Under the pieces are notes generated by a model. The model saw only the letters and a program-made list of their open reading frames with translations, was not told where the DNA came from and searched no databases. Below are positions 32,785-55,992 of a stretch of DNA of 64,000 nt, piece after piece; within the stretch, counting starts at the first letter, position 1, and each line of letters begins with the position of its first letter. The stretch is taken from the NCBI GenBank assembly GCA_947467605.1, contig CANIII010000011.1:54172-118171 (forward strand), in the 5' to 3' direction. Source of the DNA: Acidobacteriota bacterium (lineage in GTDB: Bacteria > Acidobacteriota > Vicinamibacteria > Vicinamibacterales > SCN-69-37). The position numbers were made by a program, and so were the translations under genes.

Positions 32785-34893
32785 TCATCTGCCGACCATG
32801 CGGCGCACGGCGGCGATGTCGGCTTGCATCGATGGCGGCGCGGTGCGGATGAACTGATCGGCATACACGCGCGCTTCGTCGATGCGGCCCGATTGGGCGA
32901 GGGCGCCGATCAGGTTGTACATCGCATCGAATGACGAGCCGTCGATGGTGACGGCGCGCTTCCAGCTGTCGATCGCGTCGTTCGGACGCTTCGTTTGTGC
33001 GAAAAGCGCACCGAGCGCGTTGAACGCATCTGGGAGCGACCCGTCCACCGCGAGCGCCTTGCGCAGTGACGCTTCCGCATTCACGAAGTCTTTGGCCTGC
33101 AACTGCGACACGCCGATGTTCTGGTATCCAACGGCGCTCTTGGGATCTACGGCAATCAGATGCTGGAACGTCCTGATGGCGTCGGCTGATCGCCCCGACA
33201 TTTGATACGCGTTGCCGAGCGCGATCAGCGCGTCTGGATCATCGCCGGCGAACGACGAGAGCAGTTGAATGGCTTTCGCCGGCTGTCCCGACTGCGCAAG
33301 ATATTCACCGAGTTTGATCTTCACTTCGCTCTGCGTGACGCCTGCGCGCAGCGCCGCTTCGAGTGTGCTGATCGCATCGGCGGGCCGGCCCGTACGCCAG
33401 TAGACGAGTGCGAGCTTGCGATACGCATCCTCCGTATCTGCGCGTCGTGCGATCACACTCTTGTACATGGCGATCGCCTCGTCCACCTTGCCTCCCCGAA
33501 AGGCGGTCATGGCGCTGGTCATGGTCTGTTCCAGTTCAATCAGCTTCTTGGGATCGTCGGCTTCGGTGTATTTCTCACGCAACGCGGCGGCACCGCCGCC
33601 GATGTAGCCGAGGGACCGCAACGCTTCCACGGTATCTGCCGTCTCGGCCTGCGGTTTACCTGGAGGCGCCACGTTGAAGCTCTTGAGCGTGTTCAGCAGC
33701 ACCTGCCCGCGCGTGTTCTCGGTCGCGACAATGTTGCGGAGTTCCTTGGTGTCAGCCTGCAGATCGTAGAGTTCCGCGATGGGCAGATCGATGAACTTGT
33801 CGCGGCCGACGAGCACGCCGCGCAGTGGTGCCCAGCCGCGCGCGAGGTTCGCGCTCATCGCTTCGAAGTACGACGGCCGATCCGCGCCGGTGCGTGATGC
33901 AATCAACTCTCGCAGGGACGCGCCGGCAATGCCGGTCGCAGCCGGTGCCGTCACCGCTTCGAGCACCGTCGGCAGAATATCGACATGACGGACGGGCGAT
34001 GTCACCGTCACGCCGCCGGGCACGGCCGTCTGTGAGCCGCCGACTTCCGCGATGATCATCGGCACATGCAGCGTCGACTCGTACGCGAAGAGGCTGTGCG
34101 TCAGCTCGCCATGATCGCCGAGGCCCTCGCCGTGATCGGCTGTAACGATGACCAGTGTGGAGCGGGGAAGTGTGGCGAGTCGGTCGAACAGCACGCCGAG
34201 CGCGAAGTCGGTGTACGAGACCTCCGCGAGATAGGGATCCGACGGAAACTTCGCGGCCCACTCCGGAGGGGCGGCGTACGGCGCGTGTGGGTCATACACA
34301 TGTGCCCACGTAAACCACTTGCCCGGTTGCTGGCCGATCCAGCTGAGCGCTGATGCCACGACAGCGTCCGCGCGTCGTTCCCGCTCGCCCGCCTCCGCCA
34401 AGGCTACGGCGGACAGGCCCGGTGTCCCTGGCACTGCGAGGTTGTCGTCGTAGGTGTCGAAGCCGACGTTGAGGCCGAAGCGATGATCGAGTGGAAAGCC
34501 GCCGACAAACGCGCCGGTGGCAAACCCCTGCGCTTTCAACAGCGTGGCGATCGTGGGTGTCGTCTGCGGAAAGCGATAGCCCGTGTTGTCGCGGATGCCG
34601 TGCTCGTACGGATAGCGGCCACTGAGAATCGATGCGTGTGACGCGAGCGTCACGACGGCGTGGGCGTGCGCGAAGTCAAACTTCGCCCCGCGCGCGGCCA
34701 ATCGGTCGAGATTCGGCGTCGTGGCACGTCCCCCGTACGCGCCGAGAGCGTCGGCGCGCAGCGTGTCGATGGTAACGAGCAGAACGTTACGATCGACGTT
34801 GGGCACGAGGGCAAATTCAGGTGTTCGCGTGAACCACCAGGCCGCCCCCGAGAGAGCCGCCAGCGCCAGAACGATCAGGGCTTTTCGAGCCAT
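32785..34893 (-). CDS. Sulfatase-fold (alkaline-phosphatase superfamily) domain protein with a C-terminal TPR array
   Basis: A 702-aa ORF with an N-terminal TM segment. The sulfatase-type N-terminus reads LLVTIDTLRADALGAYGG...NLDRLAARGAKF. The nucleophile position reads TLASH rather than CxPxR. The motif VTADHGEGLGDHGE is present. The C-terminal ~280 aa contain TPR repeats (e.g. AIAMYKSVIARRADTEDAYRKLALVYW). Confidence 0.85.
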   Translation of the reverse strand: MARKALIVLALAALSGAAWWFTRTPEFALVPNVDRNVLLVTIDTLRADALGAYGGRATTPNLDRLAARGAKFDFAHAHAVVTLASHASILSGRYPYEHGIRDNTGYRFPQTTPTIATLLKAQGFATGAFVGGFPLDHRFGLNVGFDTYDDNLAVPGTPGLSAVALAEAGERERRADAVVASALSWIGQQPGKWFTWAHVYDPHAPYAAPPEWAAKFPSDPYLAEVSYTDFALGVLFDRLATLPRSTLVIVTADHGEGLGDHGELTHSLFAYESTLHVPMIIAEVGGSQTAVPGGVTVTSPVRHVDILPTVLEAVTAPAATGIAGASLRELIASRTGADRPSYFEAMSANLARGWAPLRGVLVGRDKFIDLPIAELYDLQADTKELRNIVATENTRGQVLLNTLKSFNVAPPGKPQAETADTVEALRSLGYIGGGAAALREKYTEADDPKKLIELEQTMTSAMTAFRGGKVDEAIAMYKSVIARRADTEDAYRKLALVYWRTGRPADAISTLEAALRAGVTQSEVKIKLGEYLAQSGQPAKAIQLLSSFAGDDPDALIALGNAYQMSGRSADAIRTFQHLIAVDPKSAVGYQNIGVSQLQAKDFVNAEASLRKALAVDGSLPDAFNALGALFAQTKRPNDAIDSWKRAVTIDGSSFDAMYNLIGALAQSGRIDEARVYADQFIRTAPPSMQADIAAVRRMVGR

Positions 34894-34952
34894 TGGGAGA
34901 CAAGCTTAGAACAATTGCCCGGGCGACCTGCTTGCTCCTACACTGCAGAGGC

Positions 34953-37211
34953 ATGAAGACACTGTCGTCGTTCATTGCGACTCTCGTCATCGGAACTCTT
35001 GGCGTTGCCGTGGTGGCGCAGCAAACCACGCCGCCGACCTTTCGCAGCGGCGTGTCACTGGTCACCGTGGACGTCACCGTGCTCGACCGGGACGGCAAAC
35101 CCGTGCCTGGTCTCACTGCGGATGACATCGAAATCAAACTGAACGGCAAGGTGCAGCCCGTGCGCGCGTTGGCGTATGTACAAGCCGCAGCCACCCCTGT
35201 CGCGCCAGTACCCGACGCACCAAGGGCGGTCGCGGCTGTGCCGCCCGCGCCAAGTCCAATCGCCGCGCCGTCTGCGTCTGCGCCGAGACACACCATCAGC
35301 AACGCCGGCGCCGGATCGTCGCGCGCACTCGCGCCTGCAGCCGCGCCACCACCGGCGGTCGTGGCCGCACCACCCGCCGAGTCGCGCGTGTTCATTCTGC
35401 TTGTCGATGACTTGTCGTTCGCGCCAATGCGCGGCAAAGCCATGTTCAATGCGGCGACCCGGTTTCTCGATCGCATTCCGCCCTCGGATCTGGTCGGCTT
35501 CACGACGACGAGTGGCGTGGGGGCCGTCAATCCGACGCGCGATCGCGCGCTACTGCGCACGGCGTTGTCGAAAGTCGTCGGCGCATTCAACGATCCGCGG
35601 GGCATTGGCAAGACGGGTGCGGCCGCGCCAGGCAAAGCCGGCGCGGCGACGATGGACCAGCCCCTTGGGATCAGCGAATCCATCGACATCGAACGCGGGG
35701 ACGACTCGCTGTTGAAGGACGTGATTACCCGCGAGTGCTACAACGGCGATCGCAGCCAGACCAATGGCATCAGCGTCGCCGCGATGATGATCGAGGTGCC
35801 CTGCGCGGCCGAAGTAAGCCGGGATGCGCGCCGCGTGGCGGCGCTCTCGCGCCAGAACAAGGGACGCCAGATCGATGGCGTGCTGTCGGTGATCAACGCG
35901 ATGAAAATCGCCGGCGGCATTCGCCACCTCGTGCTGCTCACGGAAGGCCTCCCGGTGTCTCGCGAGGTGAATGACCTGACCCCGCTCGTGAAAGCGGCCG
36001 CGCTGGCCGGCGTGCAGCTCAGCGTGTTGCTCGAAGAGCCCGACATCAGCCTGACGGATGAAGGGCGACGCCAACAGGACGCCGGCGTCGTCCCCCAAGC
36101 CGACACGGGCATGTCCCGTCGTCGTCGCGACGACGACATGCTGCTCGTGAACGGCGCACAGACGCTCACCGACATGCTCGGCGGTACGTTCTATCGCGTG
36201 ATCGGCAATGCGGATCCGTCCTTCGACCGGGTCATCGTCGCGAGTTCTGCGGTGTATCGCCTCGGTGTTGAATTGCCCGCTGGTGCCGCGCCGGGAAAAG
36301 AATTCACCGTCACCGCATCGGTGAAACGGCCCGGCGTCACAGCAAAAGCCAACAAGTTGGCTATGGTGGCGCCACCCGAAAACGCCGCCGCACCGACGGC
36401 GGCTATAAAACCGACGGCCACGGATGCGAACGGCAACCCCATCGATCCCTCGAAGATTGCGACGGGCTCAACGCTCGCGACGACCGGGTCGATTGACGAC
36501 GTGCTGAAGGCCGCGCTGAACTCGAGCGTCAACACCGGTGATGTGCCGATCCGGATGGGAGCCACGCTTCGTCGAAGCACCAACGTGGCTGGTCAGGTCG
36601 ACGTCAGCGTGAATATCGTGATCCCGGCATCGGTGAAAGGGCCGATCACGACATTCATCGGGCTTATCGATTCGACCAACGCGCTTCGCAGCAATCGCCG
36701 CGTGCTGGATCCATCGCCTGGTGCCGACTATGCCGTGCCGTTCCTGTTTCCGTTGCCGACTGGTGACTACCGGATCCGTTTTGTGGCGTCGGACACCACC
36801 GGTGCCGTTGGCACGATTGACCTTCCCGTGCACGCGGCGCTGTCAACATTTGGCGAGTTCACGTCGAGTGACGTGCTGACGTGGGTCGTCGATAGCGCCA
36901 ACAGAGCGCAACTGTTCGCGATCGAAGACGTGCCGGCCGGCGCCGACACGCTCAACGCGTCGATTGAGCTCTATCCCAAGGGCGACATGCCGGGCGAGTC
37001 GCCGACTATTCGATGGACGCTGTTGAAAGACGGCGAGGCCAACCCGATTGCCGAAGACGAAACGCCGGCGCGCCCAGCAGCCACGCTGATGCGCGCCGAT
37101 GTGGAGTTCCCGTTCGCGGCGTTGCCGGCGGGGATGTACACCGTTCGCGCCGAACTGATCGTGAACGACAAGGTCGCCGGCACGCGCGCGGCCATTGTGC
37201 GCAAACGCTAG
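34953..37211 (+). CDS. Secreted VWA-type protein of the VWFA-related Acidobacterial domain family (large form)
   Basis: Based on ORF 34893..37211. I start it at ATG 34953 (signal peptide MKTLSSFIATLVIGTLGVAVVAQQ). It has the family N-terminal motif PTFRSGVSLVTVDVTVLDRDGKPVPGLTADDIEI and a VWA-like core (VFILLVDDLSF...). The C-terminus is beta-rich. Confidence 0.8.
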   Translation: MKTLSSFIATLVIGTLGVAVVAQQTTPPTFRSGVSLVTVDVTVLDRDGKPVPGLTADDIEIKLNGKVQPVRALAYVQAAATPVAPVPDAPRAVAAVPPAPSPIAAPSASAPRHTISNAGAGSSRALAPAAAPPPAVVAAPPAESRVFILLVDDLSFAPMRGKAMFNAATRFLDRIPPSDLVGFTTTSGVGAVNPTRDRALLRTALSKVVGAFNDPRGIGKTGAAAPGKAGAATMDQPLGISESIDIERGDDSLLKDVITRECYNGDRSQTNGISVAAMMIEVPCAAEVSRDARRVAALSRQNKGRQIDGVLSVINAMKIAGGIRHLVLLTEGLPVSREVNDLTPLVKAAALAGVQLSVLLEEPDISLTDEGRRQQDAGVVPQADTGMSRRRRDDDMLLVNGAQTLTDMLGGTFYRVIGNADPSFDRVIVASSAVYRLGVELPAGAAPGKEFTVTASVKRPGVTAKANKLAMVAPPENAAAPTAAIKPTATDANGNPIDPSKIATGSTLATTGSIDDVLKAALNSSVNTGDVPIRMGATLRRSTNVAGQVDVSVNIVIPASVKGPITTFIGLIDSTNALRSNRRVLDPSPGADYAVPFLFPLPTGDYRIRFVASDTTGAVGTIDLPVHAALSTFGEFTSSDVLTWVVDSANRAQLFAIEDVPAGADTLNASIELYPKGDMPGESPTIRWTLLKDGEANPIAEDETPARPAATLMRADVEFPFAALPAGMYTVRAELIVNDKVAGTRAAIVRKR

Positions 37212-37241
37212 TTTCTCGCCGTTCTGCCCTACACTGCGTGC

Positions 37242-39278
37242 ATGCGACGCGTGTGGGTTGGGATGTTCGCGCTGTGCCTCACGGCGCTGCTCGGTCGTGT
37301 CGCGGCCCAACAGCCGGCGCCGCCCACATTTCGTAGCGGGGTCACGCTCGTCACGATCGATGTCGTGGTGCTCGACCGCGATGGCAAGCCAGTGTCGGGC
37401 CTGACGGCTGACGATTTCCAGATCAAGTTGAACGGCAAGCCGCAACCGGTCCGGGCGCTGTCGTACGTGCAGGTCGCGCAGCAGGCGGCCCCGATGGTGG
37501 TCAGCGATGTTGCCGCCGAGGAACCAGTTGGTCGCCGTGTGGTGACCAACTCGACGCCCGTTGGTGAGGCCAGACTCTTCGTGTTGATGGTGGACGATCT
37601 GTCGTATTCACCGGGTGGCGGCAAGTCGCTGTTTGCCGCGGCCTCACGCTTCATTGATCGGCAACCGGTCGCCGACTACGTCGGCGTGACCACAAGCTCG
37701 GGCACCCGCGTCGTCAATCCCACCCTCGATCGCGTCTTCGTCAAGCAAACGCTGTCGCGAGTCGTCGGCGAATTCATCGACCCGCGCCGGCCGTTCACGC
37801 CGACGAGTCCAACGTTGAGCATTCAGGAGGCGCTCGACATCGTGGACTTCAATGACCAAGGCGTGCTGCGGCAGGTCATCACGCGCGAGTGCTTCGGCGG
37901 CAATGCCAACGAAACGGCCTCACTGCGCGCTGACCAGCTCGTGTCGCGCACCCAGTGCGGCGGGTCAACCGAGAGCACGGCGCGAATGATTGCAAGCACC
38001 ACGCGGTCCACGAAAGAGCGACAACTTGCCGCCGTGATTGCCGCGATCAACGCGATGAAGCCGGCGAAAGGATTGAAGCAGCTCGTGCTGATGTCGCAGG
38101 GCATCGGCGTCACGCGCAACGCCATGCTGGATCTCGAGCCGGTGGCTCGCGCCGCAGCCGAGGCTGGCGTGCAGATCAGCGTGCTCGTCGATGAAGGTGA
38201 CGATGTGGACGCCGGCGACGGCGGACACACGAGAGACGACACGCGCGGCGACTCCATCGGTGCGCCCGACGCCGGGATGACTGCTCGGCGCCGCGATGAT
38301 CAACGCATGTTCAGGTCAGCGATGCAGACGCTGGCTGATGCCAGTGGCGGGTTCTTTCAGACCGTGATCGGCAATGGCGATCGCGCGTTTGATCGGGCCG
38401 CCGTGGCGGGCTCAGCACTGTACCGTCTCGGCGTCGAGCCGCCCGCTGATGCGCCTGTGGGTCGGGCGTTCACGGTGGCCACAACGGTCAAACGCTCCGG
38501 TGTCACCGTGCAGGCGAATCGTCAGGCCGTGATTCCCGGTCCGCCGCCGTCAGTATCCGCCGACGAACAGGTGAAAGCCGCCATCAACGAAGGGCAGCCA
38601 CTCTTCAACGTGCCGATCCGCATGGCGGTCGCACTGCGACGCGCATCGGCAGGGCAGGTGGAACTCGGCGTCGGCCTCGATGTCCCCGCGTCGGTGGCCG
38701 GGCCGTTGACGATGACGTTTGGGCTCGTGAGTGAGAAGGGGGAGCTGCGCAGCGGCAAACGTCAGCTGGTAGCGCCCGCAGACACGTCGAACTATCGACT
38801 CACGTTTCCACTGCCGGTCGCGCCCGGAAAATACCAGTTGCGGTTTGCCATCTCCGACGCAACCGGTAGCGTTGGCAGCATCGACGTGCCGGTGGATGCG
38901 CATCTGGCCACGCTCGGCACACTCACGGCCAGCGACGTGCTCACGTGGTGGACAGATGCGAGCGGTCGCGCGCAGTTTCTGGCGCTCGATGAAGTGCCTG
39001 CCGGTGTTACCGCGCTTGGCGCCGGCATCGAGCTATATCCCGCTCCCGGCGCGGCGTTTCCGGCTGACGTGAAAGTGAAGATGTCACTGATCCCAACCGG
39101 CAAGACCGCCGCTGTTGTTGAACGCGAAGTCACGCCTCTGTCTGGCGGCGACCTGCTCCGCGCCGAAGCGCAGTTACCGCTGACCGATGTCCCCGCCGGC
39201 AGCTACACGCTACGCGCGACGGTCACTGTTGAAGGCAAAGTCATCGGCACGGCCGCAGCGATCATCCGCAAGCGCTGA
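37242..39278 (+). CDS. Secreted VWA-type protein (large form), tandem paralog of 34953..37211
   Basis: It has a signal peptide and the motif PTFRSGVTLVTIDVVVLDRDGKPVSGLTADDFQI. The VWA core carries an intact DxSxS (DLSYS, 37596-37610). It is collinear with the upstream paralog throughout. Confidence 0.8.
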   Translation: MRRVWVGMFALCLTALLGRVAAQQPAPPTFRSGVTLVTIDVVVLDRDGKPVSGLTADDFQIKLNGKPQPVRALSYVQVAQQAAPMVVSDVAAEEPVGRRVVTNSTPVGEARLFVLMVDDLSYSPGGGKSLFAAASRFIDRQPVADYVGVTTSSGTRVVNPTLDRVFVKQTLSRVVGEFIDPRRPFTPTSPTLSIQEALDIVDFNDQGVLRQVITRECFGGNANETASLRADQLVSRTQCGGSTESTARMIASTTRSTKERQLAAVIAAINAMKPAKGLKQLVLMSQGIGVTRNAMLDLEPVARAAAEAGVQISVLVDEGDDVDAGDGGHTRDDTRGDSIGAPDAGMTARRRDDQRMFRSAMQTLADASGGFFQTVIGNGDRAFDRAAVAGSALYRLGVEPPADAPVGRAFTVATTVKRSGVTVQANRQAVIPGPPPSVSADEQVKAAINEGQPLFNVPIRMAVALRRASAGQVELGVGLDVPASVAGPLTMTFGLVSEKGELRSGKRQLVAPADTSNYRLTFPLPVAPGKYQLRFAISDATGSVGSIDVPVDAHLATLGTLTASDVLTWWTDASGRAQFLALDEVPAGVTALGAGIELYPAPGAAFPADVKVKMSLIPTGKTAAVVEREVTPLSGGDLLRAEAQLPLTDVPAGSYTLRATVTVEGKVIGTAAAIIRKR

Positions 39279-39284
39279 CGCGCC

Positions 39285-39438: not shown

Positions 39439-39448
39439 TGGCAGCGCG

Positions 39449-41620: not shown

Positions 41621-41649
41621 GGCTTCCTAGATGTAGCACACAACCTGCT

Positions 41650-41697: not shown

Positions 41698-41701
41698 TGG
41701 T

Positions 41702-43807: not shown

Positions 43808-43838
43808 AACTTTCTACTTTCCTCTTCCCACTTTCAAC

Positions 43839-46748: not shown

Positions 46749-46819
46749 CCGTTGGTAGCTAAGTCCGGCTCTATCGTGGTTCGCAGTACGTAGACAGTCA
46801 AGTCTAGGAGGAAGTAAAG

Positions 46820-49800
46820 ATGATTCGAGGCGTGCGAGGGTTCCTGCTGGTTGCAGGCATTCTTTTGTTGTCTGCCGTGTCGGCCAACGCTCAGGCGATT
46901 GGTACGATCTTCGGCAAGGTTACCGACTCGACCGGCGGTGTGATGCCGGGCGTAACGGTTACGGTTGCGGGAACCGGGTTGCAGCAGCCCCTGGTCGCCG
47001 TAACGGGCTCAACGGGTACCTACCAGTTCGGCAACGTGCCGATCGGCACCTACAGCGTGGCGTTCGAACTGGAAGGCTTCAAGAAGGCCCTCCGCAACGT
47101 CATCATCACGTCGGGCTTCCAGGCCGGTATCGACCAGAAGCTGGAAGTCGGTAACCGCTCGGAAGAAGTGCTGGTCTCGGCGGCGCCGCCGGTCGTTGAC
47201 ACGAAGAAGACGACGACGGGTCAGACGTTCGACAAGGCCATTCTCGAGAACATCCCGTCGGCTCGCGATCCGTGGCAGATCATCAACATGACGCCTGGCG
47301 TTCAGGCCGGTCTCAACGTTGGTGGTTCGTCGTCTGGTCAGCAGGTGGGTCTCGCGTCGCGCGGCACGTCCGCGAACGTGCAGTGGAACCTCGAAGGCGG
47401 TTCGGTGACGGACCTGTCGTCGAACTCCTCGCCGTCCTACTTCAACTTCGATTCGTTTGAGCAGATTCAGGTGGTGAACGGCGGCGGCGACGTCTCCGTG
47501 CAGAGCTCGGGTCTGGCGATCAACCTCGTGACCAAGAGCGGTTCGAACGTGTTCAAGGGCACGGCCGTCTCGACGTTTGAAAACGACGCGATGCAGCAGA
47601 ACAACGTCACGCGCGAACTCTTCAACGCCGGCTCGAATGGTTTCATCTCGGGCGCGCCGCTGCAGAAGATCTGGGTCTACTCCGGTGAGTACGGTGGTCC
47701 GATCAAGAAGAACCGCCTCTGGTTCTGGGCCGCGGCTGACAAGCAGGACATCAACGCCGGCGTGTTGAACTTCTTCGACGGCACGAAGGGCGATCTGTGC
47801 GCCACGCTCCTCGCCGCGCAGAAGGCCGGCACGCTCGCGGGCACGGTCACCTACGACCAGCTCGACAGCGTGGTGAAGTGCTTGAACAACGACAAGACGG
47901 TCATCAAGGACTTGCAGTGGAAGTTCAACTATCAGATGAACTCGTCCAACAAGTTCCAGTACCTGTTCCAGTCGGACAACAAGTACCGCAACCGTCGCGG
48001 CGCCACGGCGAACACGGCCGTCGAAGCGACCACGCAGCAGACGTCGGATGAACCGAAGGGCATTGGCTACTGGGGTCTTCCGCTGCCGACGCACTCGCTG
48101 ACGCACACGTTGATCGCCACGGACCGCCTGGTGTTCAACTCGATGTTCACCTACGTGCACGGTGGTTTCTACCTCGACTACCAGGACGTTCCGCCGCAGG
48201 GTTCCTGCGCGCAGACCAAGTACCTCGGCTCGACCAACCCGGCCGACTACGCGCGCGACGCTTCCTGCTTGTGGATGATCCAGTCGCGCACGAACCGCAC
48301 GACGGCGTTCTCGGATCGTTCGCTCGCCGGCAACTACAACACGACGCGTCACTCGTGGGAAGCCAAGACGGACGGCACCTACTTCCTGACCAACACGCTC
48401 GGCGGCGACCACTCGCTGAAGTTCGGTGTCGGCTGGCGGCGTAACCCGATCCAGACGTTCTCGCACTACTCCGGTGGCGCGCGCGCCACAGTGCAGTGTG
48501 TCGGCAACAACTCCTCGCTCTGCGGTGGCGGCGTGATCGCGTCGGCTGGCGCGACGGCGGGCCTCGTGCCGTATCAGGCGGTGCTGTATCGCGACCAGCT
48601 CCAGAACAACGACTGGTGGACCTACAACGGTTACATCCAGGACTCATACAGCCGTGGCAAGTTCCGCGTGAACGCGGGCGTTCGCTACGACTGGCAGACG
48701 TCCAAGTGGCTCGGTGGTTGCGTGGCAGCCAACGTGCTCCGTCCGGATGCGCTCCCGTCACAGTGTGAAAATGCAACGGACACCGATGTCTCCACGGGCA
48801 AGAAGATTCAGGCGTTCTCGAACTGGGCGCCCCGTCTCTCGGTGACCTACGACATCTTCGGCAACGGCAAGACGTCGGTGCACGTGAGCGGTTCCTACTA
48901 CTACGCGACGAAGATCACGCTGGCGAACTCGCTCGGCGGTCTCTTCGCGCAGACCACGCTGACCTGGGGCCCGAACCAGTCGAGCGGTGCCTGCAGCACC
49001 ACCGCTGGTGCTCCGTGCTGGAACGACGCCAACAAAGACAGCGTCATCCAGATCGGTGAGCTGATCGGCACGCCGACGGCATCGAACACGCGTTTCAACA
49101 CGACCACGGGCGTTTTGGCCCCGGCCGGCAACATCGTTGATGCGGATGCCAAGATCGGCCGTACGCGTGAATTGGTGGCAGGTGTGCAGCACGAACTGAT
49201 CGCGAACCTCGCGGTCGGTGTCGACTACATCTACCGCAAGTACGATCGCGGCACGGCGACCTACTCGGTTGGCTACCAGCCGGGCTCGGGCAACAATCTG
49301 GCGTCGCTCTACAACCCGGCGGTACAGACGTGGACGGACCCGACCACGGGTCTGACGGCGCCGTACTACATCACCTGCACGGGGTGCGTTCGCCCGTCGG
49401 GCCTCGGCAGCACCACGGTGACCAACACGGCCTACCAGGTGTACAACGGTGTGGACTTCACGCTGAACAAGCGCTTCTCGAGCAAGTGGCAGGCGCAGAT
49501 CGCCGTGACGATTCAGAACAACCCGAGCTACCTGCCGGATTACACGTTCACCAACCCGACGGGTATCAACTTCGCGGATGGCAAGACCACGAACGCCCGT
49601 TACCTGATCAAGGCCAACGGCGCGTATCAGCTGCCCTGGGACATCATGCTGGCGGCGAACCTGAACATCAACGACGGCGGCACGCGCGTCCTCTCGATCA
49701 CGGGGCCGGGCTCGGTCTACGGCGGCGTCACCACCACAGGCGCGGCGTCCACGATTTCCTACGGCACGCTGGCGTTCGAAGACCAGGGCACCACCCGCTT

Positions 49801-50017
49801 CAAGCCCACGCAGTTGCTCGACCTGAGCGTGCAGAAGGTGATCCAGTTCCGCGGTGGCAAGAACCGTCTCAAGCTCATGTTGGATGGGTTCAACATGTTC
49901 AACGCCAACACGATCTTGGGCTACACCAGCAACAACCGCAGCTCGACGTCGTTCACGTCACCGAGCTCGATTGTTCCGCCGCGCGTGTTCCGTATCGGTG
50001 GCAGCATTTCGTTCTAA
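46820..50017 (+). CDS. TonB-dependent-receptor-like outer-membrane protein with an N-terminal CarboxypepD_reg domain
   Basis: A 1065-aa ORF with a strong RBS (TAGGAGGAAG) and a signal peptide ending ANAQA. The N-terminal domain reads GKVTDSTGGVMPGVTVTVAG...TGTYQFGNVPIGTYSV. It has a plug-like region, a long beta-barrel composition and a C-terminal ...FRIGGSISF ending in Phe. Confidence 0.85.
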   Translation: MIRGVRGFLLVAGILLLSAVSANAQAIGTIFGKVTDSTGGVMPGVTVTVAGTGLQQPLVAVTGSTGTYQFGNVPIGTYSVAFELEGFKKALRNVIITSGFQAGIDQKLEVGNRSEEVLVSAAPPVVDTKKTTTGQTFDKAILENIPSARDPWQIINMTPGVQAGLNVGGSSSGQQVGLASRGTSANVQWNLEGGSVTDLSSNSSPSYFNFDSFEQIQVVNGGGDVSVQSSGLAINLVTKSGSNVFKGTAVSTFENDAMQQNNVTRELFNAGSNGFISGAPLQKIWVYSGEYGGPIKKNRLWFWAAADKQDINAGVLNFFDGTKGDLCATLLAAQKAGTLAGTVTYDQLDSVVKCLNNDKTVIKDLQWKFNYQMNSSNKFQYLFQSDNKYRNRRGATANTAVEATTQQTSDEPKGIGYWGLPLPTHSLTHTLIATDRLVFNSMFTYVHGGFYLDYQDVPPQGSCAQTKYLGSTNPADYARDASCLWMIQSRTNRTTAFSDRSLAGNYNTTRHSWEAKTDGTYFLTNTLGGDHSLKFGVGWRRNPIQTFSHYSGGARATVQCVGNNSSLCGGGVIASAGATAGLVPYQAVLYRDQLQNNDWWTYNGYIQDSYSRGKFRVNAGVRYDWQTSKWLGGCVAANVLRPDALPSQCENATDTDVSTGKKIQAFSNWAPRLSVTYDIFGNGKTSVHVSGSYYYATKITLANSLGGLFAQTTLTWGPNQSSGACSTTAGAPCWNDANKDSVIQIGELIGTPTASNTRFNTTTGVLAPAGNIVDADAKIGRTRELVAGVQHELIANLAVGVDYIYRKYDRGTATYSVGYQPGSGNNLASLYNPAVQTWTDPTTGLTAPYYITCTGCVRPSGLGSTTVTNTAYQVYNGVDFTLNKRFSSKWQAQIAVTIQNNPSYLPDYTFTNPTGINFADGKTTNARYLIKANGAYQLPWDIMLAANLNINDGGTRVLSITGPGSVYGGVTTTGAASTISYGTLAFEDQGTTRFKPTQLLDLSVQKVIQFRGGKNRLKLMLDGFNMFNANTILGYTSNNRSSTSFTSPSSIVPPRVFRIGGSISF

Positions 50018-50018
50018 G

Positions 50019-50086
50019 TCCACTTCATCACCGGAGGAGCTTCTCCTCCGGTGAGTCAGACCAGACGGCTCCGGAGCAATCCGGAG
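50019..50086 (+). terminator. Double hairpin; the second is a canonical rho-independent terminator
   Basis: Hairpin 1 is CACCGGAGGAG-CTT-CTCCTCCGGTG (50019-50043). Hairpin 2 is CGGCTCCGGA-GCAA-TCCGGAGCCG (50056-50079), followed by TTTTTTT (50080-50086). Confidence 0.8.
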
Positions 50087-50140
50087 CCGTTTTTTTGTAC
50101 TCGGTTCGCTTCCCTCCGTGGATGATAGACACCCACGCAC

Positions 50141-51961
50141 ATGACCACCGCGCGCGCGAAGACGCTGACGCCCTTGTGGCTATTTCTCGGGTTCCTGCTG
50201 GTGACCCTCGTCATCTACGCGCCCGCCTGGCACGGCGGCATGCTGTGGGATGACGATGCGCACCTGACGCGCACGGATCTGCGGCCGCTGACCGGTCTGT
50301 GGCGGATCTGGTTTGAGGTGGGCGCGACGCAGCAGTACTACCCGGTGGCGCATTCGGCGTTCTGGGTCATGCATGCGCTCTGGGGCGACGCCACGCTCGG
50401 CTACCACCTCGTGAATATCGCGTTGCATGCCGCATCAGCCGGGCTGCTGGTGGCGTTGCTGCGCCGACTGCAGGTGCCAGGGGCGGTGCTGGCAGGACTG
50501 ATCTTCGCCGTGCACCCGGTCCACGTCGAGTCGGTGGCGTGGATGACCGAACTGAAGAACACGCTGTCGGGCGTGTTGTACCTCGGCGCCGCGCTCGTAT
50601 ATTTGCGGTTTGATGTCGAACGGCGTTCGCGGCTGTATGTGGTCGCGCTGGCGCTCTTCGTGCTCGCGCTCTTGACCAAGAGCGTCACCGCGTCATTGCC
50701 GGCCGCACTGCTCGTGGTCTTCTGGTGGCAACGCGGCCGTCTGCGCTGGCAGCGCGACGTGACACCACTGTTGCCATTCTTTGCGACGGGCATCGCCGCG
50801 GGTTTCTTCACCGCGTTTGTTGAACGCACGCAGATTGGTGCCGAGGGCGCGGCGTTTCAAATGTCGCTTCTGGAGCGCGTCGTGATCGCCGGTCATGCGA
50901 TCTGGTTCTACATTGCCAAACTCGTGTGGCCCGCCGAGCTGATCTTCGTGTATCCGCGGTGGACGGTCAGCGCGGCGCCGATGGATCTGTTGTACCCGGC
51001 CGCGGCCCTGGCGCTCGTCGCCGGGCTGTGGGCGATCCGCGGCCGCTCACGCGCGCCGCTGGCGGCATTCCTGCTTTTCGCCGGCACGCTCGTGCCCGCG
51101 CTCGGCTTCGTGAACGTCTATCCGTTCATCTACTCATTTGTCGCCGACCACTTCCAGTACCTCGCCAGCATTGGTCTGATTACCCTCGCAGCGGCCGGTT
51201 GGACGGTTCTGTCGCGCCGCTGGATGGCGGAGAACTACTCCCTGGTCGCCGCCGCGCTCGTCGTCTGTGTCCCTTTGGCGGGGCTCTCATTCCGCCAGAG
51301 TCGCCAGTATGCGGACGCCGAGACGCTGTATCGCACCACGCTCGCGCACAATTCCGCCGCCTGGATGGCGCACATCAACCTCGGCTATGTGTACCTCGGT
51401 CAGCAGCGGCCGGAGCTGGCGATCTCGGAGACGCGTGAGGCGCTGCGGATCAAACCCGACCTGCCGCAGGCCCAGAACAATCTCGGAACGGCGCTGCTCG
51501 ATCTCGGCCGCGTCGATGAGGCCACCACCGCGTTTAGCGAGGCGCATCGGCTCAAACCTTCCGATGCAGAAGTGACCCGCAATCTCGCGGTGGCTCTCCA
51601 ACGTGGCGGCGATGCGCTTCAGGATCGCGGCGATGTGGCGGGGGCGATTCAGCGTTACACCGAATCGATCGCGCTCAATCCGAACAACCCGGAGGCGCAT
51701 CACAACCTCGGGAGTGCGCTGGCACGCGCGGGTCAGTGGACCGAGGCGATCACAGAATACGTGGAGACATTGCGTCTCAATCCCAGATCCGTGCGCGCGT
51801 TGCGAAACATTGCGCGCGCCTACAACTCGCGCGGAATCGACCTGGCCGAAGCGCGTGATTTCACCGGTGCCGTCAAAGATTTCGCCGAGGCCGCGCGGCT
51901 TGACCCGGACCTGGTGGACGCACGCGCCAACCTCGCGCGCGCGCAAGCGATGATCAAGTAG
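50141..51961 (+). CDS. TMTC/PMT-like GT-C-fold membrane protein with a C-terminal TPR array
   Basis: A 606-aa ORF. The first-loop acidic motif is GGMLWDDDAHL. It continues with YYPVAHSAFW...GYHLVNIALHA. There are about 11 TM segments, then TPR repeats (AWMAHINLGYVYLGQQRPELAISETREALRIKPD...). Confidence 0.75.
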   Translation: MTTARAKTLTPLWLFLGFLLVTLVIYAPAWHGGMLWDDDAHLTRTDLRPLTGLWRIWFEVGATQQYYPVAHSAFWVMHALWGDATLGYHLVNIALHAASAGLLVALLRRLQVPGAVLAGLIFAVHPVHVESVAWMTELKNTLSGVLYLGAALVYLRFDVERRSRLYVVALALFVLALLTKSVTASLPAALLVVFWWQRGRLRWQRDVTPLLPFFATGIAAGFFTAFVERTQIGAEGAAFQMSLLERVVIAGHAIWFYIAKLVWPAELIFVYPRWTVSAAPMDLLYPAAALALVAGLWAIRGRSRAPLAAFLLFAGTLVPALGFVNVYPFIYSFVADHFQYLASIGLITLAAAGWTVLSRRWMAENYSLVAAALVVCVPLAGLSFRQSRQYADAETLYRTTLAHNSAAWMAHINLGYVYLGQQRPELAISETREALRIKPDLPQAQNNLGTALLDLGRVDEATTAFSEAHRLKPSDAEVTRNLAVALQRGGDALQDRGDVAGAIQRYTESIALNPNNPEAHHNLGSALARAGQWTEAITEYVETLRLNPRSVRALRNIARAYNSRGIDLAEARDFTGAVKDFAEAARLDPDLVDARANLARAQAMIK

Positions 51962-51962
51962 A

Positions 51963-53756
51963 TCAGCGCGCCCTGAGCTGCTTGAGCGCTTCACGTGCCG
52001 GGCCATTGCTCGGGTCAATGGCCAACGCGCGTTCGAACGCCGTGCGGGCCTCAGGTAGGCGATCCGTCATGGCCAACGCGAGGCCAAGCTTCGACCACAC
52101 CGTGATGCTGCCAGGATTGGCCGCAAGGTACGCCTGGTAGTGGGGCACGGCGTCCGTAAAATTCTTCTGAGCCGTGAGCGCCTCTCCGATCAGGCCGTGG
52201 GCTTCAGCGTGGTTGGGGTCAAGCACAAGCACGCGCTTGAGGTGCTCGATCGCTTCCGGCATTTGACCCGTCGAGCCGTACGCCTTGGCAATCATCAGTC
52301 GCGTACGTACCGGCGCCAGCGAGGGTTCTTCGCGGGTGAATCGCTCGAGCTCTGCAATGGCCTCCGCATGCTTGCCCGCGCCGAGGAGTGCCTCGCCGAG
52401 GAAGTAGCGCGCCGGCGGATACGCCTTCACCGCGGCCTGCAGGTGGGGCACGGCTTCTTCATGCCGGCCCGCGACGACCAGCTCCGTGCCCACCATCTGC
52501 TCGGCATTGGCCGTCGGCCATCGCTCGAGCACGGTGCGCGCCATGCCGAGCGACGTGGCGTACTCGGCGTTGCGCGCAAAGGTCGTGGCGCCGAACGCCA
52601 CCGTGGCAATGGCGACCACGGCGGCCGGCCATGCACTCCACGTCTCGTCGCGATGAAAGGGCGCCGTGCGTCTGGCGAGTGCCGCCAGACCCACCACGCC
52701 GAGCGTGAGCACGCCGACGAGTGGCAGATACATCCGTCGCTCGGCGCCGACTTCCGTCGCGATCGGCAACAGACTTGACGTCGGTCCCAGGAACAGAAAC
52801 ACCCAGACGGCCGCGACGCCGATGGGCCGCCACTTCGCGAGCGCCACGATCGACAGCGTGACGAGTGCGGCGACCACGATGAACGGGAGCCAGACATCGC
52901 TGAAGTGCAGCGCGCGTGGCCAGCCGTAGTAGAGCACCAGGTCGCTCGGCCACAGTGCGAGTCGCAGGTAGCGCAGGATCATCGCCGGCTGATTCAGGAG
53001 ATACGTCCACGGGCTCACGTGCGCTGTTGCGAAACCTGCACTCAGCGTCTGCCCGCGCGTGGCCAGCATCACGGCCGGCACGATCCATGTCGCAGACAGC
53101 GCGGCATAGAGCGGCCAGCGTGTGCGCCACAGCGCTCGGAAGGACACGACATCGCTGGCTGCCCAGTCGTACAGCACAACCGCGACCGGTGCCATCGCCA
53201 TCGTCTCTTTGCAGAGCATGCCCAGCGAACACACGACGACGGCCGCGACGCGCCATTGGCGCGCGACGCAGTAGAGCGTGAGCAGCAGGCACAGCGCCAT
53301 CATCGACTCGGTGCGTTGTGTAAGGTAGTTCACCACTTCACTGTTGAGCGGGTGCACCGTCCAGAGCAGTGCGACCGCGAAGGCCAGTCCCTGCGGTGCC
53401 ACCCGGCGGATGAGTGCGTATATCAGGCACGTGCAGCCCACATGGAATGCGAGATTGACGAGGTGGTAGCCCCATACGTCGAGACCGCCGAGTGCGTAGT
53501 TGATGGCGAACGAGAGCTGAACGAGGGGGCGGCCAGCGAGGGCCGTATCAGCCGGCGGGAGCAGCACCTGCCCGAGGTGCGTGAGCTGGCGGATCTCAGT
53601 GTTGCGGACGATGGTGCCGAGGTCGTCGAAGAGGAAGACGCCGGAGAAGCTGTTCCAGTACACCGCGAGGCCGCCGAGGGCGAGCGCGACGGGCGCCCAC
53701 CACGCGGGGAGCCGAGCAGGCGCCGGCGTGGCCGTTCTGGCGGGCCGACGCTTCAA
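51963..53756 (-). CDS. TMTC/PMT-like GT-C-fold membrane protein with a C-terminal TPR array (paralog of 50141..51961)
   Basis: A 597-aa ORF. It contains GVFLFDDLGTIVRN...GRPLVQLSFAINYALGGLDVWGYHLVNLAFH, multiple TM segments and a TPR tail. It starts 4 nt after the upstream VWA gene's stop. Confidence 0.75.
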   Translation of the reverse strand: MKRRPARTATPAPARLPAWWAPVALALGGLAVYWNSFSGVFLFDDLGTIVRNTEIRQLTHLGQVLLPPADTALAGRPLVQLSFAINYALGGLDVWGYHLVNLAFHVGCTCLIYALIRRVAPQGLAFAVALLWTVHPLNSEVVNYLTQRTESMMALCLLLTLYCVARQWRVAAVVVCSLGMLCKETMAMAPVAVVLYDWAASDVVSFRALWRTRWPLYAALSATWIVPAVMLATRGQTLSAGFATAHVSPWTYLLNQPAMILRYLRLALWPSDLVLYYGWPRALHFSDVWLPFIVVAALVTLSIVALAKWRPIGVAAVWVFLFLGPTSSLLPIATEVGAERRMYLPLVGVLTLGVVGLAALARRTAPFHRDETWSAWPAAVVAIATVAFGATTFARNAEYATSLGMARTVLERWPTANAEQMVGTELVVAGRHEEAVPHLQAAVKAYPPARYFLGEALLGAGKHAEAIAELERFTREEPSLAPVRTRLMIAKAYGSTGQMPEAIEHLKRVLVLDPNHAEAHGLIGEALTAQKNFTDAVPHYQAYLAANPGSITVWSKLGLALAMTDRLPEARTAFERALAIDPSNGPAREALKQLRAR

Positions 53757-53760
53757 CGCT

Positions 53761-55056
53761 TCAACGCTGACCGAACGCGACCGCGCGACGCACGAGTTCC
53801 TGCGGCGGCAGGTCCACGGCCGCGTAGCCCTTGCGCGCGCGGATGTCGAGGCCCTTCGCCTGCGTCTTGACGTCGATGCTGCGGTACTTGCCGTCCATCA
53901 CGCCGTTCTCGGGCTGATAGCCGATGACGTAGTAGCTGCTCGTATCGCTCGCGACCATGCCAATGGCGCGGCCGATGTCGTCGATGCCGTGCACCATCAT
54001 GCCGCCGGTGCCGGCCGTCAGGATCGACGGACCTTCATCGCCGTTGTCGAACGCCAACGAGCGCGCCGCCGATGCCATCGTGACATCTGGGTTCCGGCCG
54101 ATCGTGTTGAAGAGGCCGCGGCCGTCGATCGTGTAGATCGTGGTGCCGCCCCTCGCGGTTTGGGCCGCGATGGTCTGCAACTGCTGACGCGATTCTTCCG
54201 TGAAGAAGCCCTCGGTCATGAGCACGAACGTCTTGCGACCGAGGAGGCGTGTGAGGTTGGCCGAGACGTAGCGAATGTTCTGCAGCGTCGTGTCGGTCAG
54301 CACGCGGGCAGAGCGCACGTAGAGCCGCGCTTTCTGCTGCATCAGGTTTTCGACCTGCTGCACACCGCCCTGCAGCTGGCACTGGAATGGATCGTCGCTG
54401 CAGGCTTTGGCGCCGAGCCGGTCGAGCAGTTCTCGCGCGCCTTCGGTGATGCGGAGCGCGTCATTCTCTGAAGGAATGCCGGGGAACTCGCGGAACGGCG
54501 CGAGCAGCGCCTGTCGGTTGTCGATGGCCGGCGAGGCCGAACGGATCGCCGCGAGCAGCTCGACTTTGTCGTCCGTCATGCGGCTCTTGTTCATCTGGCC
54601 GTTGGCGAAGACGCCGGCCATGTCGCCCGGCATCATCTGATTGCGGATGAAGTCTTCGGCGCCCTTCTTCACGCGCATCAGCGATTCGGCGGAGAGGTGG
54701 CCCTCGTCGAACATGAAGATGAAGAAGCGGCGCGCGCGCTCTTCGGCCTCGCTGCGCGACGCGGCGAGGTTGATCACGCCTTTGGTCGGGTCGTGTGTCA
54801 CGAGGTAGAACTGCTGAATCTTCTGGGGCTTGCCGTCTTCAAAGAGGCTGAGGTCTTCGGGGAGCAGGCCCGGCACGAAGCGGCCTTGCTTGTCGAGGAC
54901 GGTCACGTCCACTTCGACCAAGGCCGTCGACGACTTGAACATTGGCTGCTGCACGCCGGCCGGCGAAGGCGTTTGGCCGTGAAGCGAGAGCGGGCGGACC
55001 GATCCAAGCAGCAGGAAGACGGCGACGCCACCACACACAACGCGAGAAAAGCGCAT
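53761..55056 (-). CDS. Secreted VWA-type protein (medium form, 431 aa)
   Basis: It has a signal peptide and the motif PMFKSSTALVEVDVTVLDKQGRFVPGLLPEDLSL. The VWA-like core is FFIFMFDEGHLS. Confidence 0.8.
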   Translation of the reverse strand: MRFSRVVCGGVAVFLLLGSVRPLSLHGQTPSPAGVQQPMFKSSTALVEVDVTVLDKQGRFVPGLLPEDLSLFEDGKPQKIQQFYLVTHDPTKGVINLAASRSEAEERARRFFIFMFDEGHLSAESLMRVKKGAEDFIRNQMMPGDMAGVFANGQMNKSRMTDDKVELLAAIRSASPAIDNRQALLAPFREFPGIPSENDALRITEGARELLDRLGAKACSDDPFQCQLQGGVQQVENLMQQKARLYVRSARVLTDTTLQNIRYVSANLTRLLGRKTFVLMTEGFFTEESRQQLQTIAAQTARGGTTIYTIDGRGLFNTIGRNPDVTMASAARSLAFDNGDEGPSILTAGTGGMMVHGIDDIGRAIGMVASDTSSYYVIGYQPENGVMDGKYRSIDVKTQAKGLDIRARKGYAAVDLPPQELVRRAVAFGQR

Positions 55057-55140
55057 AAGGACTCCCGAGGTGAATTTTCAGTACTTTAGTCCGGCCGGCG
55101 GTCAACCACCAGCGTCCAATTCGCCGGGGGATAATCAGAT

Positions 55141-55992
55141 ATGCGGCTTCGCATCTCGCTGTGCGTGTTGGCGGTGTGTATGGCGGTGGGGCTCGTGGCT
55201 GCGCAGTCTGCCACGCGGTCCATCATGGTGACCGTACTTGGCAAGGACGGCGTGGCGCTCAGGGATCTCCTGCCGGGCGACTTCATCGTGCAGGAAGACG
55301 GCCAGCGGCGCGAGGTACAGAGCGCGACGCTCTCAACCGAGCCGATGGCGGTAACACTGATGATCGATATGTCCCGGATGGGCGGCGTCGATTTGCCGCT
55401 CAGAGACATCCGGGCCGGCATGACCGCGCTCGCCAAGGCCATTTACGCCGACAATCCCGAATCCAAAGTGGCGCTGATGGATTTCTCCGGTGCGGCCGTC
55501 ACCACCGTGAGTCTGACCTCCAACGGCGATGAGTTGATGAAGGCGACCAACCGCCTCACGACCAGCCAGCGCGCTTACGGCGTGATGCTCGAAGGTCTCG
55601 TGGATGTCGCGAAAGACATGGCCAAGGTGGCGATCCAGCGACGCGCCATTGTGGCCGTCAGTTTTGACGCCCCGGAGTCGAGCCGGAATCAGCCGCGCGA
55701 CGTGGCGATGGCCGTGCAAAAAACTGGTGCCGCGTTCTGGGCAGTGTCGATTGGACAGAACACCGCGCCACTTCGCGACGTCGTGCTCGAGAACCTGCCG
55801 CCGGCCACCGGTGGCATGCGCCTGACCGCGCTCTCGCCGACTGGCCTTGAGAAGATGCTGACCGACATCGGCACCGCGCTGACCTCGCAGTTCGTCGTCA
55901 CCTACAAAGTGCCCGACGGCAGCTCGGCCACCGTGATTCAAGCCGGCGCCAAGAAGGGCGACAAAGTGCTGCGAGCCTCATGGATGAAGTAG
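55141..55992 (+). CDS. Secreted VWA-type protein (small form, 283 aa)
   Basis: It has a signal peptide (MRLRISLCVLAVCMAVGLVAAQS). The body reads IMVTVLGKDGVALRDLLPGDFIVQEDGQRREV...MAVTLMIDMSRMGG...LTSNGDELMKAT, collinear with 43839..44774. Confidence 0.75.
   Translation: MRLRISLCVLAVCMAVGLVAAQSATRSIMVTVLGKDGVALRDLLPGDFIVQEDGQRREVQSATLSTEPMAVTLMIDMSRMGGVDLPLRDIRAGMTALAKAIYADNPESKVALMDFSGAAVTTVSLTSNGDELMKATNRLTTSQRAYGVMLEGLVDVAKDMAKVAIQRRAIVAVSFDAPESSRNQPRDVAMAVQKTGAAFWAVSIGQNTAPLRDVVLENLPPATGGMRLTALSPTGLEKMLTDIGTALTSQFVVTYKVPDGSSATVIQAGAKKGDKVLRASWMK

Follow-up and report, generated by a model that had tools for sequence, protein, structure and literature searches.

A conserved acidobacterial gene cluster that joins an outer-membrane barrel to exported VWA-family proteins and putative TPR-tailed periplasmic enzymes

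The stretch of DNA analysed here (the window) comprises 64,000 nt of contig CANIII010000011.1 from a member of the Vicinamibacterales (Acidobacteriota), and its positions 32785 to 55992 are occupied by twelve consecutive open reading frames (ORFs), g1 to g12, which belong to four protein families. In this study, we provide evidence that the genes of this 23-kb block form a genuine cluster, which is conserved in many soil Acidobacteria. It encodes an Oar-class outer-membrane barrel (g8), six exported proteins of the VWA family (g2, g3, g5, g6, g11 and g12), two membrane-anchored sulfatase-fold proteins with TPR arrays (g1 and g4) and three GT-C membrane glycosyltransferases with TPR arrays (g7, g9 and g10). 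All twelve ORFs were found where an earlier note on this DNA had placed them, and the four families it had named were confirmed by profile searches.

The barrel gene g8 (46820 to 50017, plus strand) encodes a TonB-dependent-type protein of 1065 aa with a signal peptide, a CarboxypepD_reg extension (51.6 bits, cut-off 32.3), an OMP_b-brl_4 barrel (86.9 bits, cut-off 30) and a C-terminal Phe; a Plug match of 20.1 bits lies below the cut-off of 23.9. A candidate TonB-box-like segment, EVLVSAAPPVVDT, is located between the extension and the plug, and no sequence match to g8 was found in PDB. The earlier note had merely placed the barrel in the middle of the block, but it is no incidental gene there: g8 is the best-conserved member of the cluster, with 56 to 85% identity among orthologues, and barrels are paired with VWA genes throughout the Terriglobia loci described below. 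A predicted sigma-70-like promoter, TTGACG-17-TAACAT (46680 to 46708, plus strand), is the only such site found in 20 kb, and TTGAC-N17-TA..AT recurs upstream of g8 orthologues in 15 of the 15 other loci examined. Downstream of g8 lies an intrinsic terminator (50063 to 50092, plus strand) with a 13-bp stem containing 8 GC pairs and a T-run, thus g8, having its own promoter and terminator, is taken to be monocistronic. The promoter falls within codons 1 to 23 of g7, the divergent ORF (ATG at 46748), and g7 has no in-frame alternative start before its first membrane helix, therefore the g7 and g8 transcription units must overlap head to head, an arrangement that could permit antisense interference.

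A riboswitch or other leader RNA upstream of g8 was considered and dropped, since Rfam gave no riboswitch or RNA match in the window or in the g8 leader and thirteen orthologous g8 leaders showed no conserved structure. In a few relatives, the promoter of the g8 orthologue has, shortly before its -35 element, the perfect palindrome ATACCCC-N4-GGGGTAT (L026 6460-6477, L031 15375-15392 and L035 16675-16692, with a variant in L037); it resembles the operators of CsoR/RcnR-family metal repressors, and a PF02583 repressor gene is present in L002 (20740-21015). The palindrome occurs in a few loci only and is absent from the window, thus metal regulation was dropped as a general feature. Two tandem CRP/FNR-like palindromes, TGTGA-N6-TCACA, were seen in the g8-orthologue leader of a close relative (L004, about 18620-18680) and are not present in the window.

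The six VWA-family proteins fall into large, medium and small forms. The large ones are g2 (34953 to 37211, plus strand; the ORF opens at 34893, with the ATG at 34953 as the likely start), which has a long Pro/Ala-rich linker, g3 (37242 to 39278, plus strand; 678 aa), which stands in tandem with g2, and g5 (41702 to 43807, minus strand; 701 aa); g11 is of medium size (53761 to 55056, minus strand; 431 aa), and the small ones are g6 (43839 to 44774, minus strand; 311 aa) and g12 (55141 to 55992, plus strand; 283 aa). The curated cut-off of TIGR03436, the VWFA-related acidobacterial domain, is a whole-protein hidden Markov model score of 81.25 bits, which is passed by g3 (98.8), g5 (171.5) and g11 (174.5), with g2 (70.6), g6 (36.7) and g12 (45.8) scoring below it. 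An identity of 42% with g3 ties g2 to the TIGR03436 family. The two small proteins share 29% identity and both pass Pfam VWA_2 (33.9 bits for g6, 29.7 for g12, the latter also matching VWA at 24.1 bits), and they are best treated as a related small-VWA subfamily. The whole family is represented by 13,530 proteins at E<=1e-10. The export signals and the shared motif described in the earlier note both held: an N-terminal signal peptide without lipobox is present in six of six proteins, and the segment TF[RK]S..LV.VDV.V.D..G is common to the four larger ones, which as a group also feature Pro/Ala/Thr-rich linkers.

An AlphaFold2 model of g5 (pLDDT, predicted local distance difference test, 80.5) places in order a small N-terminal beta-sandwich, a disordered Pro-rich linker, the VWA domain and two C-terminal beta-sandwich regions, and in this model the conserved N-terminal motif would form the segment of the first two strands. 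Foldseek matched the modelled sandwiches to macroglobulin, FnIII and RbmA-type domains; in Pfam, the N- and C-terminal sandwiches gave sub-threshold matches only (Big_1, bMG6, Wzt_C). The model of g11 (pLDDT 78) has a VWA domain with a long helical insertion, and its predicted fold was matched with a Foldseek probability of 1.0 to the VWA domains of ITIH1, BatA/BatB, vWF A3 and ANTXR, of which the first three are the nearest, while the g11 family profile found no sequence match among solved structures. None of the six proteins has the canonical D-x-S-x-S of the metal ion-dependent adhesion site; the corresponding motif is DDLHI in g5, DEGHL in g11, DDLS[FY] in g2 and g3, DSSAA in g6 and DMSRM in g12, with D119, L121 and H122 invariant in the g5 group and D116 and E117 invariant in the g11 group. 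Fusions among long VWA-family proteins were limited to tandem VWA repeats or TPRs, and therefore gave no new functional clue. With their signal peptides, linkers and combination of a VWA domain with Ig/macroglobulin-like sandwiches, the VWA proteins have the look of adhesins or matrix-type proteins that are exported. One g5 orthologue (P0122) carries a precomputed Pfam CopC match (PF04234), probably to a C-terminal beta-sandwich, which is isolated and was not reproduced in g5.

The three GT-C proteins are g7 (44811 to 46748, minus strand; 645 aa), g9 (50141 to 51961, plus strand; 606 aa) and g10 (51963 to 53756, minus strand; 597 aa), each with 8 to 10 hydrophobic segments (about 10 in g7) followed by TPRs. 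All three belong to PMT_2 (cut-off 26.1 bits), with scores of 51.9 bits for g7, 36 to 37.4 bits for g10 and 29.7 bits for g9, which passes only when its N-domain is scanned alone. Of these, g7 is a separate, ArnT/PMT-like type and carries an ArnT-like first-loop segment, LDTTAYAELAERV; g9 and g10, which are 26% identical over their full length, are TMTC-like. After the first transmembrane segment g9 has the DD motif LWDDD, with D-T at the equivalent place in g7. Among 17 relatives (g9, g10 and 15 others), no variation is seen at D44-D45, P77 (..GRP), K183 (SKE) or, in the DRRMY region, A338 and Y343. Human TMTC1-4 have the motifs M1 DD, M2 ..YRP, M4 KE.. and M7 ERxxY, and the invariant positions of g9 and g10 resemble these when compared with the motif descriptions in the paper that defines them (PMC7801869), which also records full-length prokaryotic TMTC homologues and leaves them uncharacterised. 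No DUF1736 match was seen in g9 or g10, both of which Pfam places in PMT_2 only, and the g10 membrane domain had no significant sequence match to solved structures.

The sulfatase-fold proteins g1 (32785 to 34893, minus strand; 702 aa) and g4 (39449 to 41620, minus strand; 723 aa) share 53% identity and consist of a single N-terminal membrane segment, a Pfam Sulfatase domain (145 and 129 bits, respectively; about 50 bits to Phosphodiest) and a C-terminal TPR array. The Sulfatase domain and the conserved metal-ligand Asp and Asp-His (D61, D264-H265) place them in the alkaline-phosphatase superfamily, and their closest solved relatives are soluble S1 sulfatases. The earlier note had described them as sulfatase-fold proteins with TPRs; the fold stands, whereas the sulfatase identity does not, since alignment to PDB 4upi shows T-L-V-S-H in g4 and T-L-A-S-H in g1 in place of the formylglycine motif C/S-x-P-x-R. 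Across 52 sulfatase-fold relatives, orthologues and paralogues, D61, T100, S103, H104, H209, D212, H214, D264, H265, H272 and H277 (g4 numbering) are invariant. Within the superfamily, a Thr nucleophile combined with Asp/His clusters marks members that transfer phosphoryl groups, such as NPP, EptA and LtaS, and not sulfatases. The segment T-L-x-S-H-x-S-I-L-T-G of g1 and g4 resembles the NPP motif T-F-P-N-H-Y-S-I-V-T-G, which is a lead rather than a test. Because T-L-x-S-H replaces the formylglycine motif and the Asp/His clusters are invariant, g1 and g4 are probably phospho-ester enzymes and not sulfatases, and the cluster, which has no formylglycine motif, is not a sulfatase locus; the guess in the earlier note that VWA proteins or their ligands might be phospho-modified fits this loss. 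Weak matches to EptA/MCR were also recorded, as were weak matches of the TPR parts to PgaA/BcsC-type TPRs. The family is very large, with 6969 matches at E<=1e-10 to a query from the paralogue group of L051. In keeping with the periplasmic enzymes that had been proposed, g1, g4, g7, g9 and g10 face the periplasm and keep catalytic-type residues, and by these features they look catalytically intact.

The genes are packed in the tight units that had been noted, with gaps of 36 nt between g7 and g6, 31 nt between g6 and g5, 81 nt between g5 and g4 and 30 nt between g2 and g3. The gap of 4 nt between g11 and g10 holds for the longest g10 ORF, which starts at a TTG (53756), while in public gene calls g10 begins 31 codons further downstream, which leaves 566 aa and widens the gap to 97 nt. 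The TTG start is more likely, as orthologues conserve the first transmembrane helix and g10 would lose it with the later start. Exported or membrane-bound VWA and TPR proteins are also found together in Bat/MoxR operons, and the solved folds that come nearest to g11 include the BatA/BatB VWA domains (PDB 4jdu, 3ibs). However, as the earlier note had argued, this is not such an operon: neither MoxR nor DUF58 was matched in a Pfam scan of the twelve block genes and about 25 ORFs outside the block, nor in the called genes of related loci, and the scanned ORFs lack BatD as well. Moreover, the block VWA proteins are not membrane-anchored and have a non-canonical metal site, and the block includes enzymes and a barrel.

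The cluster is widely conserved in Vicinamibacterales. Full-length orthologues of g11 (56 to 87% identity) and of g5 (48 to 76%) occur in all 120 protein clusters among the matches listed for each, and those sources that are named are Vicinamibacterales or Acidobacteriota metagenome-assembled genomes (MAGs). In genomes about 60% identical, orthologues of g1, g4, g6, g7, g8, g10, g11 and g12 lie no more than 21 kb apart in shuffled order. There, BLAST identified the neighbours of g11 orthologues of about 60% identity as orthologues of window genes, with identities of 65% for g1, 63% for g4, 37 to 41% for g6, 47 to 49% for g7, 64 to 74% for g8, 46% for g10 and 48% for g12; g1 orthologues reach 63 to 75% in most related loci and g9 orthologues 62 to 72%. 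A scan of one genome per species gave 56 loci, 35 of which were kept for having at least 14 kb and a g11 orthologue. A sulfatase-fold+TPR orthologue was present in 34 of the 35, a small VWA gene in 30, a g8 orthologue in 28, a large VWA gene in 20, a g7-type GT-C gene in 19 and a g9/g10-type GT-C gene in 15, and any GT-C+TPR gene in about 27; these counts are anchored on orthologue groups and not on a random family sample. The earlier note had set beforehand, as its refuting outcome, co-occurrence no greater than copy number explains. At least two partner classes were found in 31 of the 35 species-level loci (three in 24 and two in 7, with one in 4 and none in 0), in spite of the reshuffled gene order. 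The cluster withstood that test, which supports the view of the note that these genes are a conserved unit under selection. Most genomes are MAGs, a few of them with doubtful taxonomic labels (Solibacteraceae, Acidimicrobiia, Betaproteobacteria).

Certain arrangements within the reshuffled loci are preserved. In 19 of 26 loci, the gene immediately upstream of the g4 orthologue encodes a small VWA protein, and the g12 orthologue often adjoins the g1 orthologue; from their positions, small VWA genes appear to pair with sulfatase-fold genes like subunits. The divergent g7-g8 orthologue pair is kept in 15 to 16 of 22 loci. Nine loci, including L010 (11312-13258, minus strand), encode between the g11 orthologue and the barrel an extra GT-C-like membrane protein (about 595 aa), which shows no clear TPR tail and has no counterpart in the window.

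In Terriglobales, distant TIGR03436 genes have an Oar-class barrel directly upstream on the same strand, abutting or overlapping (in L060, CarboxypepD_reg and OMP_b-brl_4, the latter at 623 bits). This adjacency was seen in four Terriglobia genome loci, and a metagenome scan, which returned 80 orthologues of the Terriglobia VWA protein at 50 to 94% identity, found it in 57 of the 57 loci with enough upstream sequence to be informative. None of these 57 loci has a TPR enzyme near the pair. As the Terriglobia pair is strictly conserved without a TPR enzyme, the barrel and the VWA protein appear to be the core, with the TPR enzymes as a lineage-specific layer. Alignment of g8 with the Terriglobia barrels by BLASTP failed for divergence; the barrels found next to VWA-family genes share one architectural class and fall into three lineages or more, and the link between barrel and VWA protein covers these three lineages and not a random family sample. 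Six Terriglobia loci (L120, L122, L126, L133, L136 and L144) show the arrangement VWA, barrel, VWA.

A second cluster type in Vicinamibacterales was recovered with the L051 sulfatase-fold+TPR paralogue as query, and TIGR03436 genes and barrels were present in two of the three contexts examined. Here TIGR03436 VWA proteins are fused to C-terminal TPR arrays (L063 14671-17304, 17357-19405 and 19453-21645; L062 14454-16940) and sit with tandem sulfatase-fold+TPR genes and a separate barrel lineage. The earlier note had seen TPR arrays on the enzymes, which is correct, and had read them as an enzyme-only feature pointing to the VWA partners, which is not: given the fusions, TPR tails are shared by soluble and anchored components and are not enzyme-only readers of substrates. 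Small CarboxypepD_reg+TPR proteins (L062 8939-9883, L064 9155-9892) lie directly upstream of the sulfatase-fold+TPR gene, in the position of the small VWA gene in the window. Beside this cluster type and its barrel, L062 (6383-8797), L064 (6559-8991) and a set of 12 loci encode a fusion of about 805 aa of a beta-lactamase-like domain with NamZ_N/NamZ_C (exo-muramidase), which hints at an adjacent peptidoglycan-salvage unit.

Taken together, our tentative account of the cluster, which we hold at somewhat less than even probability, is a module of an outer-membrane barrel and exported VWA partners, to which Vicinamibacterales have added periplasmic enzymes, TMTC/ArnT-like glycosyltransferases as well as phospho-ester enzymes, whose probable task is the maturation of the VWA proteins. 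At its core, the Oar-class barrel g8 would work with the Sec-exported VWA/beta-sandwich proteins g2, g3, g5, g6, g11 and g12, and the gain in Vicinamibacterales would be five inner-membrane-anchored, periplasm-facing TPR-tailed enzymes (g7, g9, g10, g1 and g4). The VWA proteins would reach the periplasm via Sec, where the TPR-tailed enzymes may capture them and glycosylate them from polyprenyl-phosphate sugars, phospho-modify them or trim them; they would then act with the barrel, either as surface-bound cargo, as in the case of Oar and PopC, or as the ligand-capturing partners of an importer, in the manner of SusD or HasA. The families, the conservation of the cluster, the pairing of barrel and VWA gene, the kept catalytic-type residues and the lost sulfatase motif are shown by the data; that the VWA proteins are the enzyme substrates, what chemistry modifies them and in which direction transport runs are points that we infer. 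Within this account, joint action of the barrel and the VWA proteins, with TPR-tailed transferases or esterases recruited to it in Vicinamibacterales, has the best support.

Several lines speak for VWA-protein maturation. The catalytic sites of the enzymes look intact, and the best-studied GT-C enzymes of this type, namely PMT, TMTC and TMEM260, act on proteins. Furthermore, the large VWA forms carry Pro/Ala/Thr-rich linkers, and their conserved N-terminal motif may form a strand pair like the target of TMEM260, whose TPR domain is reported to keep hold of the first beta-strand of an Ig-like domain during mannosylation of the strand that follows (bioRxiv 10.64898/2026.03.17.711096). The resemblance to TMTC1-4 and TMEM260 (PMC7801869; bioRxiv 10.64898/2026.03.17.711096) lies in the build of g9 and g10, a GT-C membrane domain followed by TPRs with DD after the first transmembrane segment and ..RP, K-E and [DE]RxxY-type motifs, and extends to the clients, as TMTC/TMEM260 act on beta-sandwich domains (cadherin, IPT), and beta-sandwiches stand at both ends of the block VWA proteins. 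Unlike those enzymes, g9 and g10 are bacterial and periplasm-facing, and match PMT_2 alone in Pfam.

As for the direction of transport, export is suggested by analogy with the Oar-class barrel required for PopC secretion in Myxococcus xanthus (PMC6434023), by the lack of any other evident outer-membrane route or anchor for the VWA proteins and by the presence of six VWA genes per barrel. Oar shares with g8 a subclass defined by architecture (CarboxypepD_reg extension and large barrel, with a plug that is putative in g8) and is a precedent for outward protein transport, but its cargo is of a different class, no Ton-system genes lie near g8, and export here is putative. Import with a capture partner is suggested by the canonical role of TonB-dependent barrels and by a gene order that is analogous to SusC-SusD. 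The likeness to the Myxococcus CglB/Glt gliding adhesion complex (PMC9946355) is thematic only: there, outer-membrane beta-barrels together with periplasmic TPR proteins reportedly act on a surface protein with a VWA domain, powered by a Tol/Ton-like motor; CglB is, however, a lipoprotein, and the cluster has no Glt or Agl homologues.

Several observations weigh against the maturation account. No gene for a polyprenyl-phosphate sugar synthase or for TonB/ExbBD was found among the window ORFs, and with its own promoter and terminator g8 is not co-transcribed with the other cluster genes. In view of the VWA+TPR fusions, the ligand of the TPRs may rather be a polymer or some third partner that they have in common. 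The Terriglobia pairs without a co-encoded TPR enzyme imply that modification is not intrinsic to VWA function, and since g8 and the Terriglobia barrels cannot be aligned by BLASTP, the pairing of barrel and VWA protein could have arisen more than once. The departures from the canonical metal site in the large and medium forms (DDLHI of g5, DEGHL of g11) count in the same direction.

A broader version is possible but doubtful: a two-part outer-membrane machine found throughout the phylum, made of an Oar-class barrel and a dedicated exported VWA/beta-sandwich partner and comparable in function to SusC/SusD or Oar/PopC, which in Vicinamibacterales would be fed by TMTC-like O-glycosyltransferases and reprogrammed sulfatase-fold phospho-enzymes. 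If true, it would be the first bacterial counterpart of domain-specific glycosylation of the TMTC/TMEM260 type. The component superfamilies are known, whereas their association and the strict barrel-then-VWA pair were not found in the literature searched; no paper was found with TIGR03436 or its domain name, and none linking VWA proteins with TonB barrels in Acidobacteria or describing this association. Acidobacteriota are among the most abundant soil bacteria and carry very large unexplained expansions of Oar-type barrels, VWA proteins and TPR-tailed sulfatase-fold proteins, to which the Terriglobia pair and the Vicinamibacterales cluster give a testable organising principle. The cluster supplies candidate substrates for bacterial TMTC-like glycosyltransferases, for which none have been assigned so far, appears from its residues to show a sulfatase scaffold converted to Thr/His chemistry, and points to an undescribed machine of barrel plus partner in a dominant soil phylum. 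Should the VWA proteins be cargo, just one earlier case of a TonB-type barrel that exports a protein would be known; should they be co-receptors, this would be an acidobacterial counterpart of SusCD.

A different explanation is a nutrient-acquisition locus comparable to a polysaccharide utilisation locus. The barrel would import a substrate that is scarce and either phosphorylated or polymeric, with the VWA/Ig-like proteins capturing it outside the cell or in the periplasm and the Thr-nucleophile enzymes hydrolysing its phospho-esters in the periplasm. Import is the canonical role of such barrels, g8 has a strong predicted promoter and a terminator to itself, as abundant receptors typically do, the active site of the sulfatase-fold enzymes is still phospho-esterase-like, and the very large size of their family (the 6969 matches) also fits. 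The likeness to SusC/SusD of Bacteroidota is considerable, since the barrel has a CarboxypepD_reg extension, a non-enzymatic partner gene follows directly downstream on the same strand (57 of 57 in Terriglobia, mirroring SusC-SusD), and sulfatase-fold enzymes are common neighbours in both. However, the partner here is a VWA and beta-sandwich protein with an ordinary signal peptide instead of the TPR-like SusD lipoprotein, and because no SusD-family Pfam match was found in the block or in related loci, this is not a SusCD locus. The six VWA proteins per barrel (SusC/SusD has no such number of partners) fit a 1:1 co-receptor poorly, and they are not lipoproteins and have no evident route to the surface. 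Three conserved GT-C glycosyltransferases, which are biosynthetic, would have no catabolic role, and the block contains no periplasmic binding protein, ABC or MFS importer or other inner-membrane transporter, glycoside hydrolase or regulator. We therefore consider nutrient acquisition rather unlikely, and maturation of exported VWA partners of a barrel preferable.

Less probable still is the decoration of an envelope glycoconjugate following the logic of ArnT and EptA, whereby sugars and phospho-groups would be placed onto lipopolysaccharide (LPS), periplasmic glucans or exopolysaccharide, the TPRs would bind polymer as in BcsC, PgaA and AlgK, and the VWA proteins would be structural accessories. 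The enzyme superfamilies are indeed the same (PMT_2-type GT-C and Thr-nucleophile sulfatase fold) and act on the periplasmic face; g7 has the ArnT-like first-loop segment and its PMT_2 match, Pfam Sulfatase also covers the lipid A phosphoethanolamine transferases, to which the weak EptA/MCR matches point, the weak PgaA/BcsC-type TPR matches agree, and the VWA+TPR fusions would fit a shared TPR ligand other than the VWA proteins. EptA, LtaS, OpgB and BcsG possess a five-helix lipid-donor domain, in contrast to the single membrane segment of g1 and g4, whose closest solved relatives are the soluble S1 sulfatases. The block enzymes are also unlike ArnT and EptA in being TPR-tailed and in having no LPS gene context, no polysaccharide synthase, flippase, Wzx/Wzy or GT2 gene was found among the scanned window ORFs, and the co-conservation of six VWA genes with a barrel would be left unexplained.

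Chance juxtaposition of four high-copy acidobacterial paralogue families, for which the size of the families (13,530 VWA representatives and 6969 sulfatase-fold+TPR matches) and the age of the within-block paralogues might speak, is extremely improbable and was excluded, as 31 of 35 species-level genomes keep specific orthologues from two or more partner classes together despite reshuffling, the barrel-VWA pair recurs in 57 of 57 informative Terriglobia loci, and the remaining 40 kb of the window contain no homologues of the four families. A role in anti-phage defence was likewise dropped, since PADLOC models gave 0 matches for the ten block proteins searched.

The window has a uniform base composition of about 63% G+C. 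Paralogues within the block share 25 to 53% identity and are thus old, therefore the block is not a recent local amplification. It is flanked by a gamma-glutamyltransferase gene on the left and by YchF on the right, and the other 40 kb encode unrelated functions, among them GyrB/ParE-like, GH3 and ABC-F proteins, SSF transporters and a MATE transporter. On the far side of the gamma-glutamyltransferase gene, some 2 kb from the left edge of the block, a minus-strand gene (29670-30803) encodes a 377-aa protein of repeated CarboxypepD_reg/transthyretin-like sandwiches, and a gene for a phosphate-selective porin O/P lies near the start of the window (2053-3480, minus strand).

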